Notes: generated by a model not told the origin, from the sequence alone. A stretch of DNA of 64,000 bases from an uncultured Nitrososphaerota archaeon (GCA_963799845.1 CAWCYI010000004.1:1920001-1984000); one strand, 5' to 3'. Positions 32,502 through 43,215 are shown, counted from the first letter of the stretch. Numbers and translations: made by a program.

Positions 32502-32635
32502 TTTACGTAAATCCCGAGTGCCGAGATGTGGGACCCTCGCACGAATTTACTAGTAAAAGTGCCACTGCGTCTGTAAATCCGAAAATCGAGAACAGAGGGT
32601 CAGAACCAAGATTCGGACACGAATTTGCTAGTAAG
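32502..32635 (-). repeat. palindrome/TCCCAC repeat, copy R2 (three palindromes)
   Basis: reverse complement: CTTACTAGCAAATTCGTGTCCGAATC ... TTTACTAGTAAA-TTCGTGCGAGGG-TCCCAC-ATCTCGGCAC-TCGGGA-TTTACGTAAA. Confidence 0.92.
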
Positions 32636-33412: not shown

Positions 33413-34333
33413 CTATTCTGAGCTCCTGATCAAATTCAAATACACATCCTCAAGAGTCGAGCTTGCCTCTGTAACGTACTGGATGCGACCGCCCGCTGCC
33501 CCAATCGAGTTCACAATGTCAGGATTTTGTTTCTCGGGATCGCTAACCGTGATTATCAGCTTGTTTTCTGCTACCTCGACATTTGCAACTCCGAGTCTTT
33601 TGACCGCGGATATGATTGCATTGTTGACGGATTGAAGTTGAAAAACCGTCTTCCTTCCCAATATTGACTCTCTGAGCTTTTCCGGTGTTCCGACCGCTAT
33701 GAGTTTAGTTCTTAGTATGCCCACTCTATCGCAGATTCTTTCAGCCTCGTCAAGAAGATGAGTGTTAAGAAAGATTGTTTTTTTCTCTTTCTTGAGATCT
33801 AAGATGAAATCTCTCACTGTTTTCGAAGCTTCGGGATCCAAGTTTGCGGTGGGTTCGTCCAAGAAGAGAACTTTGGGATCGTGAATTAGTGCTCGAGCTA
33901 TCGCAAGTTTTTGCTTCATTCCCTTGGAGAATGTACCAGCCGGAAGATCCCTTTTCTCCCAAAGCTCCATTAGCTTTAGTAAATATTCTATCCTTTCTTT
34001 TCTCTTAATTTCGTCGACCTTGTAGTACCTGCCATAGAAATCCAGGTTCTTGTATGCGTTTAGTTCCTCGTAGAGACCGACGTTATCTGGAATCAGCCCG
34101 ATCATCCCTCTGATCTTTGGTTGATCCGCGCTGTTTCCAATGTCATAATCGCCTATCTTCGCGGTACCACTTGTCTTCGATATGAGGCATGCTAGCATTC
34201 GGATAGAAGTGGTCTTGCCAGCGCCATTGGGACCGAGAAACCCGAAAACTTCACCTTCGGCCACGTGAAGAGTGAGGTCATCGACAGCGGTGAGATCGCC
34301 AAATTTTCTCGTGAGGTTCTCCGCATCTATCAA
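33413..34333 (-). CDS. ABC transporter ATP-binding protein
   Basis: GPNGAGKTT, FSKGMKQK, LFLDEPT. Confidence 0.95.
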   Translation of the reverse strand: MIDAENLTRKFGDLTAVDDLTLHVAEGEVFGFLGPNGAGKTTSIRMLACLISKTSGTAKIGDYDIGNSADQPKIRGMIGLIPDNVGLYEELNAYKNLDFYGRYYKVDEIKRKERIEYLLKLMELWEKRDLPAGTFSKGMKQKLAIARALIHDPKVLFLDEPTANLDPEASKTVRDFILDLKKEKKTIFLNTHLLDEAERICDRVGILRTKLIAVGTPEKLRESILGRKTVFQLQSVNNAIISAVKRLGVANVEVAENKLIITVSDPEKQNPDIVNSIGAAGGRIQYVTEASSTLEDVYLNLIRSSE

Positions 34334-34605
34334 TTAGGTAAGTCCACGAAGATAACCCATCGTTGGAAATATAAAGCGCCCGCAGCTGTACAATTCTTGT
34401 ACAATGGATTAGACCGATTCGCGGATCGGCAGGTCCTAATCGGGAATATCGTTTCACATTGAGCGCGGACGCGATTCTATCCCCAGAGGAAGTAAAGAGC
34501 ATCGCCCAAAGAGTGCTCGCGATTGAACGGATTTTTCTCAGAAGGGGAGGTTTGTTTGGCATACTTTGTTTAGGTGAGAATGATGTGAATTTCCGACAGT
34601 TTGTG

Positions 34606-34613
34606 CTTACTAG
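34606..34613 (+). repeat. left part of repeat R3 (CTTACTAG), split by IS110
   Basis: joining it to 37753 restores CTTACTAGTAAATACGTGTCCGAATC, matching R2 and R5. Confidence 0.88.
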
Positions 34614-34935
34614 GTGACATGATCGACCGTATTAAAGGAACGTAAAGCCACAGCCAAGCACATGTACGCAGCAATAGACTTGCACCAAAAAACTGTACAG
34701 TCAGTACTCAAGGATGAAGGGGGAAGGATAGAAAACGAGCTGAAGATCAACAAGGATGCAAAAAGCATACTCGAATTTCTTGATGGTACTGATGCTGAAA
34801 TAGTCATGGAGTCTGGTTACAACCACGAACACATCTATGATCTTCTAAAGGAGGAAGGATACGATGTCAAGGTAGCTCATCCATTGATGGTTAAGGCGAT
34901 CGCATACGCAAAAGTGAAAAATGACAAGGTAGACG

Positions 34936-36883
34936 GCGCGCCAAGGAATCTCTATGACTCGTGGACGTAAGTTCCACTCTGGGAATCGCAGGTTTGCCCA
35001 GATAGATTGGGGCACAGCTAGCGGAGCAATTCGCTGGCTGGAGCTGTCCTCAAATCAAATCCTCAGGCCGCAGCGCAAGCGAACTCGATGTAGCACCGTG
35101 AGGTCGGAGTGGGAAGGCCTAGCAAGTCGTCACTCTGCGAAGGCTAGAACTGCATCATCAGGTGTAATGCCTGTAGCCTGCGAGCATGCAGCTTCCCCGG
35201 TGTTGCAGGGGTGGCATGAGGAGAAAGCCATGGAGCCTAACTTGGGAGACCGGGTAGTGTCCATAGATGCTCTAACAACTAGGGCATCTTTGGTAGTGCT
35301 GCCTATAAGCTCGTTGAGCGAAATGGCGGCCGAAGCGCTGCACGGAGTCGGAAAGGCTAGTAGTATTCATGAGGGTGAGGACAGCACAACCTCGCACGAG
35401 AGAAGGAGCCTTACTTGTGTGCGTGACTGCTCAAAGTTCATGGACGAGTCCATTCTTCGCAAGAAGTAAGAGGTTGAAAGCTCGTAATTTGAAGCCCGTC
35501 GAAGAACTTCGTAGCAGTCTTTACCGAACAGCTGAAGGAGAACAAGGAAAGGAGATTCTACAGTCTAAAAGATAAAATCTGTCGGATCGATGTTTTGGAA
35601 GAAGCTTGGAAAAGAGTCAGAGCAAACAAAGGTGTGGAAGGAATCGACAACGAGACAATCGAGGACATAGAAAGGAGAGGAGTTGATGAATTCCTCTCGC
35701 GGCTACAGCAAGAACTCAAGGACGAAACATACAAAGTTCAGTGCGTCAGGAGAGTTTTCATTCCCAAACCGAATGGGAAGAAAAGACCTCTTGGTATCCC
35801 AACTGTAAGGGACAGGGTAGTTCAACAGGCGGTCAGATTAATCATCGAGCCGATATTCGAAGCTGATTTCCAAGATTTCAGCTACGGATACAGATCGCAC
35901 AGGTCGGCAAGAGATGCAAGCTTGGCAATCTACAGGTGCCTAAACTTCGGTCTTACGAACGTCATCGATGTTGACATCGAAGCGTTCTTCGACCACATAG
36001 ACCATTCAAAACTAATCTCCTTTGTCAAGGAGCGAGTCACAGACGGATACATCATCAAACTCGTCAGGGAATGGCTCAGGGCAGGCGTCGTCTACATGGG
36101 TGAAACGACTTATCCGAATGAGGGGACTCCTCAGGGTGGAGTCATCTCGCCTCTTCTAGCCAACATCTATCTCAACAAACTCGACGCAGCATGGACGGAG
36201 CTGAAGATGAACAGCAGATACAAGTACAATTCTCAGCTCGTTAGATACGCCGATGACATTGTAATCTTCACAGACAGGAGTTATGCAGGAAACATCATGA
36301 GGTTTCTCTCGGAATTTCTTTCCTCATATCTTGGACTCGAGCTGCGCGAGGACAAATCCAGAATCACTACAGCAAAGGAAGGATTTGATTTCCTTGGATT
36401 TCACTTCTTGAGAAGATTTGAGTTCAGGAAGGGGAAGGAAGTAACCAGATTCTTCCCGTCCAAAGCTACCGTGCGAAAGTTCAGGGACAAGGTTAGGGAG
36501 CTAACTGCAAGGGGTGTCACTCACGTCAAGGATGAAAGGCAGCTAGCCAAGGAACTGAACTTGCTCATTGTAGGATGGACTAACTACTTCAACCACTCTA
36601 ATGCCTCAGAAACATACGGAGACTTGCAGCACTACGTCGAATGGAAGTTCAGGCAATTCATACGCTTCAAACATCAGATTCGCAGATTGTCAGCCAGATA
36701 TGATGGCTTCGATCAGCCCTCTCAATTTGGCTTGAAATCTCTAGCGGGTAGAATCTCGTACGTAACTTGGGAGCCGTACGCTCTTCGGTGAAGCACCTCG
36801 GTAAGCTGTGTGAGGGAAAACTTCACGCACAGTTTGATGTGGGAGGGGGAGGATTGAAAACAAAATCCTCTCTTTCACCCAAC
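34936..36883 (+). mobile_element. group II intron
   Basis: 5' GCGCG; domain V AAGCTGTGTGAGGGAAAACTTCACGCACAGTTT (36803-36835); domain VI hairpin with bulged A ending ACCCAAC; removal restores the recombinase frame exactly. Confidence 0.95.
35595..36791 (+). CDS. ltrA: group II intron reverse transcriptase/maturase (no endonuclease domain)
   Basis: RPLGIPTVRDRVVQ, GTPQGGVISPLLANIYL, RYADD, GFDFLGF, GWTNYF; natural N-terminus (EELRSSLYRTA/KENKERRFYSL) is offset by one base near 35534. Confidence 0.93.
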   Translation: MEEAWKRVRANKGVEGIDNETIEDIERRGVDEFLSRLQQELKDETYKVQCVRRVFIPKPNGKKRPLGIPTVRDRVVQQAVRLIIEPIFEADFQDFSYGYRSHRSARDASLAIYRCLNFGLTNVIDVDIEAFFDHIDHSKLISFVKERVTDGYIIKLVREWLRAGVVYMGETTYPNEGTPQGGVISPLLANIYLNKLDAAWTELKMNSRYKYNSQLVRYADDIVIFTDRSYAGNIMRFLSEFLSSYLGLELREDKSRITTAKEGFDFLGFHFLRRFEFRKGKEVTRFFPSKATVRKFRDKVRELTARGVTHVKDERQLAKELNLLIVGWTNYFNHSNASETYGDLQHYVEWKFRQFIRFKHQIRRLSARYDGFDQPSQFGLKSLAGRISYVTWEPYALR

Positions 36884-37594
36884 CAAGGACACTTGCAGAT
36901 CTACTGAGACTGGACATGATACCGGAGTGCTACATCCCCAGCCAAGAGATAAGAGAAGTAAGAGACCTGGCAAGGAGGAGACATTATTTCGTCTCGACAA
37001 GAACGATGTTCAAAAACAAAATCCATGCAGAGCTCAGCAGGAGATGGATTGATTACAGTAAAGATCTCTTCACGCAGACTGGGATGGACCATCTAAAATC
37101 GCTTCATATCGCAGCGGTAAATGACTACCTCGACTCAATTCAGTTCCTCGATGAGAAGATACGAGAGCTTGACGGCCAAATCAAGGAAAAGCTCTTGGCG
37201 ACAAATATGCGAAGCTCCTTGTGACGGTGCCAGGAATATCCTACTACGGTGCGCTGCTGATTTCAAGCGAGATTGCAGACATCAACAGATTCCCAGACCC
37301 AGAACACCTGTGCTCCTATGCAAAACTGGCACCCGGAACTCATCAATCGGGAGAGACACAATACCAGAAAGCAGATCGTAACAAGGGCAATCACATGCTC
37401 AACTGGATATTGATCCAGTGTGCTCACATACACGTCCTAAACTGCAACTCGTCGATTACTGGGCATTACAACAGGATCAAGGAAACGAGGGGAAACAAGA
37501 TCGCCATCGTCGCAGCAGCAAGAAAACTGACGTGCGCAATCTACATGATGCTGAAGGAAGAAAGAGCCTTCAGGCTGGACGGCTAAAACCATAA

Positions 37595-37741
37595 ACTGGG
37601 CTCGAGAATTTACTGCATCTTCAGGATGCGTTTACTAGGATGAGCCAAAGGCAATAAGCGAAAGCCACAATGCTCTTTTGGAGCGAATGGGAGTATGCTC
37701 GTCCAGCATGACAAAAGAGATATTAAGAAATGTAGCCCAGT
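37595..37741 (+). ncRNA. predicted bridge/seek RNA of the IS110
   Basis: two stem-internal loop-stem modules; loop 1 carries GAATTTACT and TTTACTAG (target), loop 2 carries ATGGGAG (donor end); ends ACTGGGCT/AGCCCAGT are complementary. Confidence 0.8.
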
Positions 37742-37750
37742 CGACATGGG

Positions 37751-37879
37751 AGTAAATACGTGTCCGAATCTCGTTACATGACCGAGCTATCATCTTGAAA
37801 ATTTGGAAATAGGGGTTGTATTTTTACTAGTAAATTCGTGCGGGGGTCCCACAACTCGCACTCGGGATTTACTAGTAAA
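37751..37879 (+). repeat. palindrome/TCCCAC repeat, copy R3 (right part)
   Basis: AGTAAATACGTG ... TTTACTAGTAAA(37823)-TTCGTGCGGGGG-TCCCAC-AACTCGCAC-TCGGGA-TTTACTAGTAAA(37868). Confidence 0.93.
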
Positions 37880-38017
37880 AACTGAAGCCAAATGCTCAAA
37901 CTTACACAGCAGCTCCCATAACGTTAGCGCGTTCATTTGCTGGCACAATTTACTGGCATCTCGAGGCTCAATTTAACCAATAAATACCTTGAACATGCGT
38001 GAACGACGAGTGCGAAC

Positions 38018-38392
38018 GTGACAAATTCAAAACTCTCGTTCATACATGTCGGTTTACCCTTGGATCACCCATCTATCCCAATCGAAATTCAGAAGGAAGC
38101 GAGCGTGCAGCTCCCAAGGTTGCGCGACCGGATGCAAGCGGAAGGCTATGGATATGAGCTTGTGTTTGCTTCGCCCGAGGATGGCTTAGAGAACTTCAAG
38201 TCGCAGCTAGGGGCACGTGGACCGGATGGCGTCGTCATAGGCGGAGGAGTGGTAGGCAATCCTCAAATGCGCTTCTTCATGGAGCAGATCATTGATGTAA
38301 TACGAACCTCTGCACCTAAAAGCAAAATCCTTCTAATTGGCAGGCCAGAGGAAGCGCCAGCCGCTGTTGCGCGATGGTTCCCAAAGGCCTAG
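38018..38392 (+). CDS. hypothetical protein (flavodoxin-like fold possible)
   Basis: DGVVIGGGV..FMEQIIDVIR..AP..AVARW. Confidence 0.65.
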   Translation: MTNSKLSFIHVGLPLDHPSIPIEIQKEASVQLPRLRDRMQAEGYGYELVFASPEDGLENFKSQLGARGPDGVVIGGGVVGNPQMRFFMEQIIDVIRTSAPKSKILLIGRPEEAPAAVARWFPKA

Positions 38393-38507
38393 GTTGTTCC
38401 AAGTAATGCGAGACACCTGCGAGCGCACTTGATCTATCTCATCCTGAAACGCCCTAATCCTGCCACTCTTACTGTAGTCTTCTAGACCCAAACGGAAGGA
38501 GGTCTGA

Positions 38508-43065: not shown

Positions 43066-43215
43066 TTTACTAGTAAATTCGTGCGCGAATCCGTTACCTA
43101 ACCGAGCTATCATCTTGAAGAGTTACAATAGGGCTTGGATTTTTACTAGTAAATTGGTGCGGGGGTCCCACATTCCGCGCTTGGAATTATCTGTCGGTTG
43201 GTTTTTACTAGTAAA
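43066..43215 (+). repeat. palindrome/TCCCAC repeat, copy R5 (three perfect palindromes)
   Basis: TTTACTAGTAAA at 43066, 43142 and 43204; shares ACCGAGCTATCATCTTGAA with R3; GTGCGGGGG-TCCCAC core. Confidence 0.93.

Follow-up and report, generated by a model that had tools for sequence, protein, structure and literature searches.

The element and its insertion site

The locus described here lies in a 64,000-nucleotide (nt) stretch of DNA (CAWCYI010000004.1:1920001-1984000; referred to as the window, from the first letter of which positions without a contig name are counted) that belongs to a 4.6-Mb genome assembled in 9 contigs and 87% complete. Positions 34614-37752 hold an insertion sequence of IS110/IS1111 type that interrupts the palindrome TTTACTAGTAAA, shows the dinucleotide AG at each junction and carries a group II intron in its recombinase gene. 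In the interpretation developed below, to which we assign a probability of about 0.9, this element, a putative IS1111-type representative of the IS110 family whose host genome is archaeal and Nitrososphaerales-like, would be guided to its target by a bridge (or seek) RNA from its 3' non-coding end. The features of the element are as follows.

34606-34613, + strand: left target half CTTACTAG, including core AG (34612-34613); the same TTACTAG is found 5' of copies B, C and D and of loci L002 and L008 of genome G004
34614-37752, + strand: entire IS110/IS1111-type element, 1191 bp or, when the intron is included, 3139 bp; the right-hand core AG (37751-37752) is counted in by convention
34614-34661, + strand: short left end of 48 nt, in which the subterminal inverted repeat CATGATCGAC spans 34618-34627
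34662-34935, + strand: recombinase exon 1, N-terminal DEDD/RuvC-like domain up to NDKVD (Pfam PF01548, E 1.4e-6, 28.6 bits with a cut-off of 29); copy B runs on uninterrupted
34936-36883, + strand: group II intron of 1948 nt in the recombinase gene (Rfam, Pfam), missing from copy B
36884-37586, + strand: recombinase exon 2, frameshifted (Pfam PF02371, 65 bits, E 8.4e-18)
37587-37752, + strand: right end, 166 nt, proposed bridge/seek RNA gene; aligns with 31 homologous 3' ends and scores 121.5 bits with model R1
37740-37748, + strand: right subterminal inverted repeat GTCGACATG, pairing with CATGATCGAC
37753-37762, + strand: right target half TAAATACGTG, running into a copy of a longer repeat family; an uninterrupted paralogue, TTTACTAGTAAATACGTGTCCGAATC, lies at C6:496137

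Comparison of the element with its own genome by BLAST indicated three copies in addition to that of the window (copy A). Copy B (C6:903708-904898) lacked the intron and was 99.4% identical to copy A in the left part and 100% identical in the right part, copy C (C6:961386-962579) showed 85% identity in the right part and 82% at the left end, and copy D was a left-end fragment of 129 nt on contig C1. The ends of the element were defined as the points where the flanks of the copies ceased to match. At the left junction, CTTACTAG was followed from 34614 by GTGACATGATCGAC (starting GTGAC), and at the right junction the element ended at 37752 with GTCGACATGGGAG (last bases ATGGGAG), followed by TAAATACGTG. 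These junction strings, the AG repeats and the stem and guide coordinates considered below had been proposed in an earlier note made from the window sequence, and each was verified base for base. The subterminal repeats CATGATCGAC and GTCGACATG comprised 9 bp with one indel and lay 4 nt inside each terminus (match judged by eye, without chance scoring).

A common insertion site was evident from the flanks of these copies. The sequence (T)TTACTAG was found 5' of all four copies in the genome and a second AG followed by TAAA was found 3' of the three complete ones, the repeat at the junctions being AG only in each of these three. Removal of the element from the shared flanks, (T)TTACTAG on the left and AGTAAA on the right, therefore restores TTTACTAGTAAA, and the use of one insertion site agrees with the site specificity of IS110 elements. 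In genome G004, from the same genus, the three copies that retained a flank were at the same position of the palindrome (TTACTAG to the left of L002 and L008, and TAAATTCATGCGGGGGTCCCAC after the right-end fragment L010), the location of further copies being a check that the earlier note had suggested. TTACTAG was also the insertion site of L011, L091, L111, L144 and L149. An additional claim, that the rebuilt empty site matches other repeats over tens of bases, held for the right flank, which matched other repeat copies over approximately 100 nt (86% to window 43072-43169 and 84% to C7:22192-22290), but not for the left flank, for which no second match was found by BLAST anywhere in the genome beyond approximately 8-15 nt.

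In the window, TTTACTAGTAAA was present in 8 exact copies and in 10 with at most one mismatch, as opposed to 0.06 expected, and 0 of 100 shuffles reached 10. The genome as a whole contained 40 exact copies, concentrated in a small number of regions on contigs C4, C6 and C7, 14 of which extended to TTTACTAGTAAATTC. Many repeat units consisted of TTTACTAGTAAA, approximately 33 nt (GTGCGGGGGTCCCAC.. or ..GGGGTTCAAATCCCAC..) and TTTACTAGTAAA again. The site for which the RNA appears to be programmed, TTTACTAGTAAA(TTC), is thus the palindrome of a dispersed repeat family that offers the element many landing sites. The inner part of the repeat unit folded as a hairpin (GTGCG..CGCAC), and ..GGGGTTCAAATCCCAC.. 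resembled a tRNA T-arm in many copies. Sites of this repeat family in the window were noted at 32546, 37823-37879, 41000, 43066-43215 and 53175.

The proposed 3' RNA and the covariation of its guides

The target loop of the proposed RNA reads, in order, GGCTC-GA-GAATTTACT-GCATC-TTCAG-GATGC-G-TTTACTAG-GAT-GAGCC. The geometry first recognised from the window, i.e., an outer stem, a 5' guide, an inner hairpin and a 3' guide, was present in the 3' end of the element and in its relatives. The features of the RNA are as follows.

37599-37646, + strand: target-binding loop; P1 and P2 recovered by RNAalifold, with compensatory changes in three of four P1 pairs and two of five P2 pairs
37599-37603 with 37642-37646, + strand: outer stem P1, GGCTC/GAGCC
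37606-37614, + strand: 5' guide GAATTTACT, reverse complement of core AG + TAAATTC (consensus right half-site); predicted to pair with gene-strand (top) DNA
37615-37629, + strand: inner hairpin P2, GCATC (37615-37619) with GATGC (37625-37629)
37630-37638, + strand: 3' guide GTTTACTAG, i.e., G followed by TTTACTAG (37631-37638), identical to the left half-site + core AG; predicted to pair with bottom-strand DNA
37639-37641, + strand: conserved GAT spacer
37650-37666, + strand: hairpin P3 (GGC...GCC) with conserved loop ..GCGAAA; 96.9% of cells paired, no covarying pair, conservation support only
37672-37684, + strand: hairpin P4 (GCTC/GAGC); two of four pairs compensatory (columns 134/146: UA 23, GC 5, AU 2, CG 1)
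37734-37740, + strand: AGCCCAG, a potential pairing partner of CTGGGCT (37596-37602) that would compete with P1

The occupied site departed from the guides by the two mismatches that had been reported, one on each side (GCTTACTAG compared with guide GTTTACTAG, and AGTAAATAC compared with AGTAAATTC), and the site of copy C (C6:961386) matched the guide at 9 of 9 positions on the right side. The core had been given as CT, a reading that holds for the non-gene strand; on the gene strand the core is AG.

Conservation of the RNA fold was evident from an alignment of 32 distinct 3' ends (A2), for which RNAalifold gave P1 to P4 and a short invariant helix. Over P1-P4, 97.6% of cells were paired and 7 of 17 pairs showed changes on both sides. 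In four of five measures the observed values were reached by 0 of 500 shuffles, and slid controls paired in 17-49%. Between copies B and C, which are approximately 85% identical overall, the 3' non-coding end was nearly unchanged and the differences affected a hairpin loop and a stem that was altered on both sides, which points to selection on the RNA. An Rfam scan of 34000-38500 at E<=1 identified no family over the 3' end, the matches being intron parts, a related D5 model and a chance match to Corona_FSE (E 0.96). An outer stem of a second loop, CTCTTTTG/CAAAAGAG in copies A and B and TCCATT/AATGGA in copy C, was considered and then dropped, as the 32-sequence alignment showed the covarying local hairpin P4.

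Relatives of the element were identified with the 200-amino acid (aa) N-terminal frame of the intron-less copy, which gave 318 matches. Among the 120 matches listed (63-90% identical), full-length homologues were 320-342 aa in length and the few named ones were designated IS110 family transposase, mostly from Nitrososphaerales. The description of the element as archaeal agrees with these labels of its closest homologues, and it is from them that we infer an archaeal host. Guided by a 21-sequence recombinase alignment (A1), we examined 80 species-genome loci and 80 metagenome loci and, among those with a recognisable end of the open reading frame (ORF), parsed 38 3' ends, including two copies of the genome under study and the homologue of genome G011. 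One plan was common to all 38. The two strands of an outer stem enclosed, in order, a variable 5' side with CT (in some cases with an extra T) at its end, a hairpin rich in GC, a variable 3' side with AG at its end, and the trinucleotide GTT or GAT before the closing strand.

Guides that differed from those of the window element were found with correspondingly different insertion sites. In G011 (L003, 67% identical), the element was located between CTATTATAG and AGAGAGAAG and carried guides CCTCTCTCT and CAATTATAG, which showed the same geometry with agreement at 8 of 9 positions per side. At three loci of one other genome (L013-L015), the site was GGCTCTGTAG on the left and AAACCA on the right, matched by guides TGGTTTCT and TCTGTAG, and at L097 it was CATTTTAG on the left and CGCCA on the right, with guides TGGCGCT and AATTTTAG. 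For permutation tests, identical guide/flank pairs were removed and rows with a contig-cut or N-containing flank were dropped, which left 20 distinct guides on the 5' side and 16 on the 3' side. On the right side (33 pairs), 5.15 of 7 positions matched, as opposed to 3.32 after shuffling (maximum 4.33), while on the left side (24 pairs) 4.88 of 7 positions matched, as opposed to 2.50 (maximum 3.54); on each side, none of 10,000 flank shuffles reached the observed value. Thus, in the comparison of homologues that the earlier note had suggested as a check, both sides of the loop changed with the flanks. The two sides of the loop were also the top signals in a parse-free scan of all RNA columns against all flank positions, the left flank being matched in the same sense (0.94-0.98) and the core with the right flank in the complementary sense (0.71-0.78).

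The TTTACT strings might alternatively be pieces of the target repeat that were carried along within the element, or an accidental resemblance to an AT-rich palindrome, in stem-loops that act as a terminator or regulatory structure. Two similar half-site copies arise more easily by chance when the target is palindromic, and the region lies directly 3' of the stop codon, where terminators sit. Against this, homologues with unrelated targets carried new half-sites at the same two positions of the loop, the permutation result was 0 of 10,000 on both sides, the parse-free scan picked only these columns, and compensatory changes preserved the stems, in contrast to the freely varying loop sides. Covariation has already largely refuted this explanation, which we regard as scarcely credible.

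The length over which the guides tracked their targets was determined from agreement at increasing distance from the core. For the 3' guide and left flank, agreement was 19-21 of 21 at positions 1-4 and 14 of 21 at position 5; for the 5' guide and right flank (non-redundant rows), it was 27-28 of 29 at positions 1-4, 21 of 29 at position 5 and 14 of 29 at position 6. Beyond these positions, agreement was at the level of chance in both comparisons. Thus, approximately 4-5 nt of the 3' guide and 5-6 nt of the 5' guide follow the target across the family. The 5' guide of 9 nt originally proposed does match the repeat consensus (TTC), but the outermost G and A of GAATTTACT are unsupported as guide positions family-wide.

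A further comparison was provided by L096, L097 and L100, the recombinases of which were 97.2-97.5% identical. The guides of these elements differed (TGGGGGCA and ACTTTAAG for L096, TGGCGCT and AATTTTAG for L097, TGGTGCT and AAAATAAG for L100) and their three targets matched the respective loops. The presence of near-identical enzymes in three loop-matching targets is the strongest single argument against recognition by protein, i.e., a recombinase that reads the palindrome itself, with an RNA that is only structural or regulatory and guide-flank matches that arose by co-evolution of RNA, protein and target. In favor of such recognition, the role assigned to the RNA of the present family comes from sequence only, and both donor ends, being almost invariant, might be recognised by protein, end recognition in IS1111 elements having been left open by Siddiquee et al. 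(PMC11187229). On the other hand, reprogramming of the RNA redirects insertion in bacterial relatives (PMC11187229, PMC11208160). Recognition of the target by protein thus appears very unlikely, and guidance by RNA is the explanation considered in what follows.

Proposed mechanism and relation to known systems

RNA-guided recombination, by bridge or seek RNA, was established in bacterial elements in 2024. By analogy with these characterised systems, the RNA of the present family would be made and bound by the recombinase, and its base pairing would direct recombination. The family would encode a DEDD recombinase of approximately 325 aa and a bridge (seek) RNA of approximately 150 nt in the 3' non-coding end, and the insertion site would be specified by the first internal loop of this RNA. 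The 5' side of the loop (..TTTACT) is predicted to pair with gene-strand DNA of core AG and the right half-site, and the 3' side TTTACTAG with the opposite strand of the left half-site and core. Exchange of strands by the recombinase at the 2-nt core would leave AG on either side of the element.

On the donor side, the following two stretches of the RNA were considered.

37685-37693, + strand: candidate donor guide GAATGGGAG, the same as the right terminus ATGGGAG (37746-37752) including the core; concordance with the right end 0.97-0.98
37698-37704, + strand: tentative second donor guide CTCGTCC (CYCRUCC), complementary to core G + the first 4-5 nt of the left end; weak

The conserved GAATGGGAG, directly after P4, is probably the guide for the right terminus of the element once this has been excised as a circle. 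A G/A variant at one position agreed by eye between this stretch (GAATRGGAG) and the terminus (ATRGGAG) in 32 of 32 aligned RNAs. For CTCGTCC, 5-6 of 7 positions could pair (G:U allowed) in each of 23 rows with a known left end, as opposed to 0-5 in shifted registers, one of which gave 5 in many rows. Two further candidates were rejected. A link of CCC(G/A)TCC to the G/A variant of the right terminus failed in 6 of 32 rows (L091, L096, L097, L098, L100 and L115), and ATGCTC (the 5' strand of P4), which was compared with the left end in the same sense (0.75), showed no covariation (L095, L103, L018).

The arrangement of the element corresponds to that of the IS1111 group, in which left ends are short, right ends and subterminal inverted repeats are long, and a bridge RNA is predicted in the right end (PMC11208160). 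Thus, the left end of 48 nt compares with a right end of 166 nt, subterminal inverted repeats are present, and the guide complementary to the top strand comes first. In IS1111 elements, seekRNA derives from the downstream non-coding region, its segment complementary to the top strand lies 5' of that complementary to the bottom strand, which is the reverse of the order in IS110, and the target matches overlap (Siddiquee et al. 2024, PMC11187229). Compared with the seekRNA elements ISEc11, ISPa11, ISKpn4 and ISPst6 (PMC11187229), the present element is alike in its long downstream non-coding region and short left end, in subterminal inverted repeats (7-17 bp in IS1111) with short terminal extensions, in two short RNA segments that match opposite target strands and overlap at the crossover, the top-complementary one being 5', and in repeated palindromes as targets. 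It differs in that its family occurs in archaeal (Nitrososphaerales-labelled) hosts and its recombinase of approximately 325 aa is just under the 330-350 aa of IS1111 transposases (PMC11187229). The RNA, moreover, is without an Rfam match, and the gene of the window copy holds a group II intron. The assignment to IS1111 is made here from layout, repeats and guide order.

IS621 inserts into repetitive extragenic palindromic (REP) repeats. The analogy with this element, drawn when the window was first read, extends to the geometry of the internal loop but not to the overall arrangement, which is of IS1111 type with the RNA 3' of the gene and the top-complementary guide first. Shared with IS621 (Durrant et al. 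2024, PMC11208160; 8WT6 and other structures) are the succession of outer stem, guide, hairpin and guide, a 2-nt core in both guides, a second RNA region, here a candidate, that matches the element's own terminus, and a recombinase with DEDD and Transposase_20 domains (distant, E 8e-8). In contrast, the RNA of IS621 lies upstream, in a long left end, rather than downstream, and in its loop the bottom strand is paired by the 5' side (8-9 nt) and the top strand by the 3' side (4-7 nt), with the core in both (PMC11208160). In the present family this strand order is reversed, the tracked lengths are approximately 5-6 and 4-5 nt plus core, and the core on the gene strand is AG. A further likeness is to ISPpu9 of Pseudomonas putida, an IS110-family element that is found in repetitive extragenic palindromes and whose transposase gene has a gene for a small RNA downstream of it (PMC12288879); its host is bacterial whereas that of the present element is likely archaeal.

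Several observations weigh against guidance of this family by RNA as proposed above. The mechanism is proposed here from sequence, and the homologues are related to one another, so that the permutation tests overstate independence. CA rather than CT was found opposite the AG core in 3 of 29 non-redundant 5' guides. The fifth fold measure (further pair types) was reached by 196 of 500 alignment shuffles, and the window RNA taken by itself had a minimum free energy fold (-45.6 kcal/mol, z -2.36, equalled by 3 of 200 shuffles) that lacked P1 and used instead the helix of 37596-37602 with 37734-37740. A competing helix of at least 6 bp, with differing sequences, was present in 13 of 32 relatives as opposed to 2.2% of shuffled tails. 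The donor half of the RNA is only partly readable, one guide being clear and the other weak, and the termini vary too little. Finally, no intact copy was found in the 87%-complete assembly, in which a tblastn search with the intact homologue P0001 returned only the three defective copies and distant IS110-family genes.

Elements that bear CA (L096, L098, L099 and L104) still showed AG at their junctions. The competing helix, which was missing in a subclade of 10 with short tails, may mark a precursor conformation that keeps the target loop closed.

Observations were also made on more distant relatives. The RNA model built from Nitrososphaerales 3' ends matched, at 27-32 bits, relatives labelled Methanosarcinales, Methanophagales, Methanobacteriota or 'archaeon' with recombinases 32-46% identical. 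The RNA was upstream of the gene in six loci (L022 859-1013, L023 857-1010, L024 857-1010, L025 867-963, L062 857-1010 and L061 16-169) and downstream of it in L021 (970-1160). In L022, L023 and L024, the 3' loop side GTATTTGAC was found again 5' of the RNA, at a distance of approximately 70-80 nt, where a left flank would be expected. Within the archaeal relatives, the RNA module thus seems to have changed ends. A more far-reaching proposal, which we rate well short of even odds, is that of a compact, naturally diversified bridge-recombinase family native to archaea of the ammonia-oxidiser type. Such a family would combine a recombinase of approximately 325 aa with an RNA of approximately 110-150 nt that reads approximately 5+2+5 bp, near-identical enzymes having been 'reprogrammed' in nature; its RNA would be downstream of the gene in Nitrososphaerales and upstream in ANME/Methanosarcinales relatives, and its target loop would be held closed in the precursor by the competing helix. 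If true, the placement of the RNA in Nitrososphaerales and ANME would capture the end-swap from IS110 to IS1111 inside one archaeal lineage.

With regard to host range, the same readable code appears to be present in a widespread, mostly Nitrososphaerales-labelled clade with dozens of natural guide/target pairs. The family represents a set of small recombinases and RNAs that are candidates for orthogonal programmable tools, and model R1 or alignment A2 can be used to find the RNA and to predict the target of each element. For the genome at hand, the match between guides and repeat would explain the pile-up of elements in one repeat family. The concept of RNA-guided insertion is unchanged by these findings, and both archaeal IS110 recombinases, of which 662 were counted in one study (bioRxiv 10.1101/2024.06.21.599552), and computational predictions of bridge RNAs, made for 93% of catalogued IS1111 elements (PMC11208160), are already known. 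Searches of the literature for IS110 in Thaumarchaeota and for bridge RNA or seekRNA in IS1111 retrieved no paper on Nitrososphaerales elements; archaeal members may already be among the elements and predicted RNAs tabulated in the supplements of these two studies (Durrant et al., Siddiquee et al.).

Recombinase gene, group II intron and state of the copies

By six-frame reading and Pfam, the recombinase gene was found in three pieces, 34662-34935, 36884-37224 (the rest of DEDD_Tnp_IS110 and the linker) and, in another frame, 37221-37586 (Transposase_20). The second PF01548 fragment had an E of 6.1e-5, the low scores of the fragments being due to the split of the gene. Both PF01548 and PF02371 were present in nearly all full-length homologues among the matches listed, which were 64-90% identical. 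In alignment A1, D6, E50, D88 and D91 were invariant, as were P243, Q247 and S248 of the motif ..LAPGTHQSGE.., which is encoded in the window by the ORF at 37221-37586; G249 was nearly invariant. The protein was distantly similar to the solved transposases of ISCro4 (E 7e-9) and IS621 (E 8e-8). The intact homologue P0001 showed 90% identity over the compared part.

Compared with copy C and P0001, which have one continuous frame there, copies A and B lacked one base in an A-run near 37187-37190. The frame is therefore broken, the N-terminal reading stopping at 37222-37224, while the Transposase_20 domain is read from 37221 to the stop codon of the gene at 37584-37586. As it stands, copy A is unable to make the recombinase, although the intron might be spliced out. 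Since copies A and B are near-identical and have this defect in common, their last copying either drew on recombinase provided in trans or took place despite the frameshift. The sequence now present there, A-AAG, belongs to the classic motifs for -1 slippage in bacteria. Copy A would thus be mobile only with recombinase in trans or, as a speculation, through rare -1 slippage at A-AAG.

These defects raise the question of whether the element is only a fossil, i.e., whether its RNA gene is by now non-functional in the present genome, with the copies being remnants of a burst that has died out. All copies are defective, with an intron and a frameshift in A, a frameshift in B, several frameshifts in C and a fragment of only 129 nt in D. 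In contrast, the 99-100% identity of A and B together with their common frameshift points to recent copying, the preservation of the 3' end between B and C points to selection on the RNA, and an intact copy may be missing from an assembly that is 87% complete. We consider the fossil state a serious contender, at slightly less than even odds; it bears on present activity and not on the identity of the element.

The distant IS110-family genes of the genome were 28-32% identical to P0001 and were located at C6:337475-338461, C6:927915-928646, C6:959926-960657 and C6:1073055-1073786, with others in the same range of identity at C4:1233981-1234712, C4:1287430-1288416, C4:1350245-1351210 and C4:2116361-2117358.

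The position of the intron, directly 3' of NDKVD, was fixed by the intron-less copy B. Rfam identified group-II-D1D4-4 at 34959-35078 (51.4 bits, E 1.4e-9) and domains V/VI of Intron_gpII at 36801-36883 (48.1 bits), and the ORF at 35595-36791 encoded a reverse transcriptase/maturase (Pfam RVT_1, 132 bits; GIIM, 52.5 bits). The intron was single-copy in the genome (self-hit only by BLAST), and a search of the literature on group II introns in archaea and Nitrososphaer* retrieved nothing on introns in Nitrososphaerales. In 1 of 12 other genomes of the family, G010, a partial match to the intron was noted, with 50% identity over 170 aa. The ORF of the intron looked intact (398 aa from the first start codon in an open frame of 432 aa), and the intron began with GCGCG, where GUGYG is usual, and ended with ..AAC.

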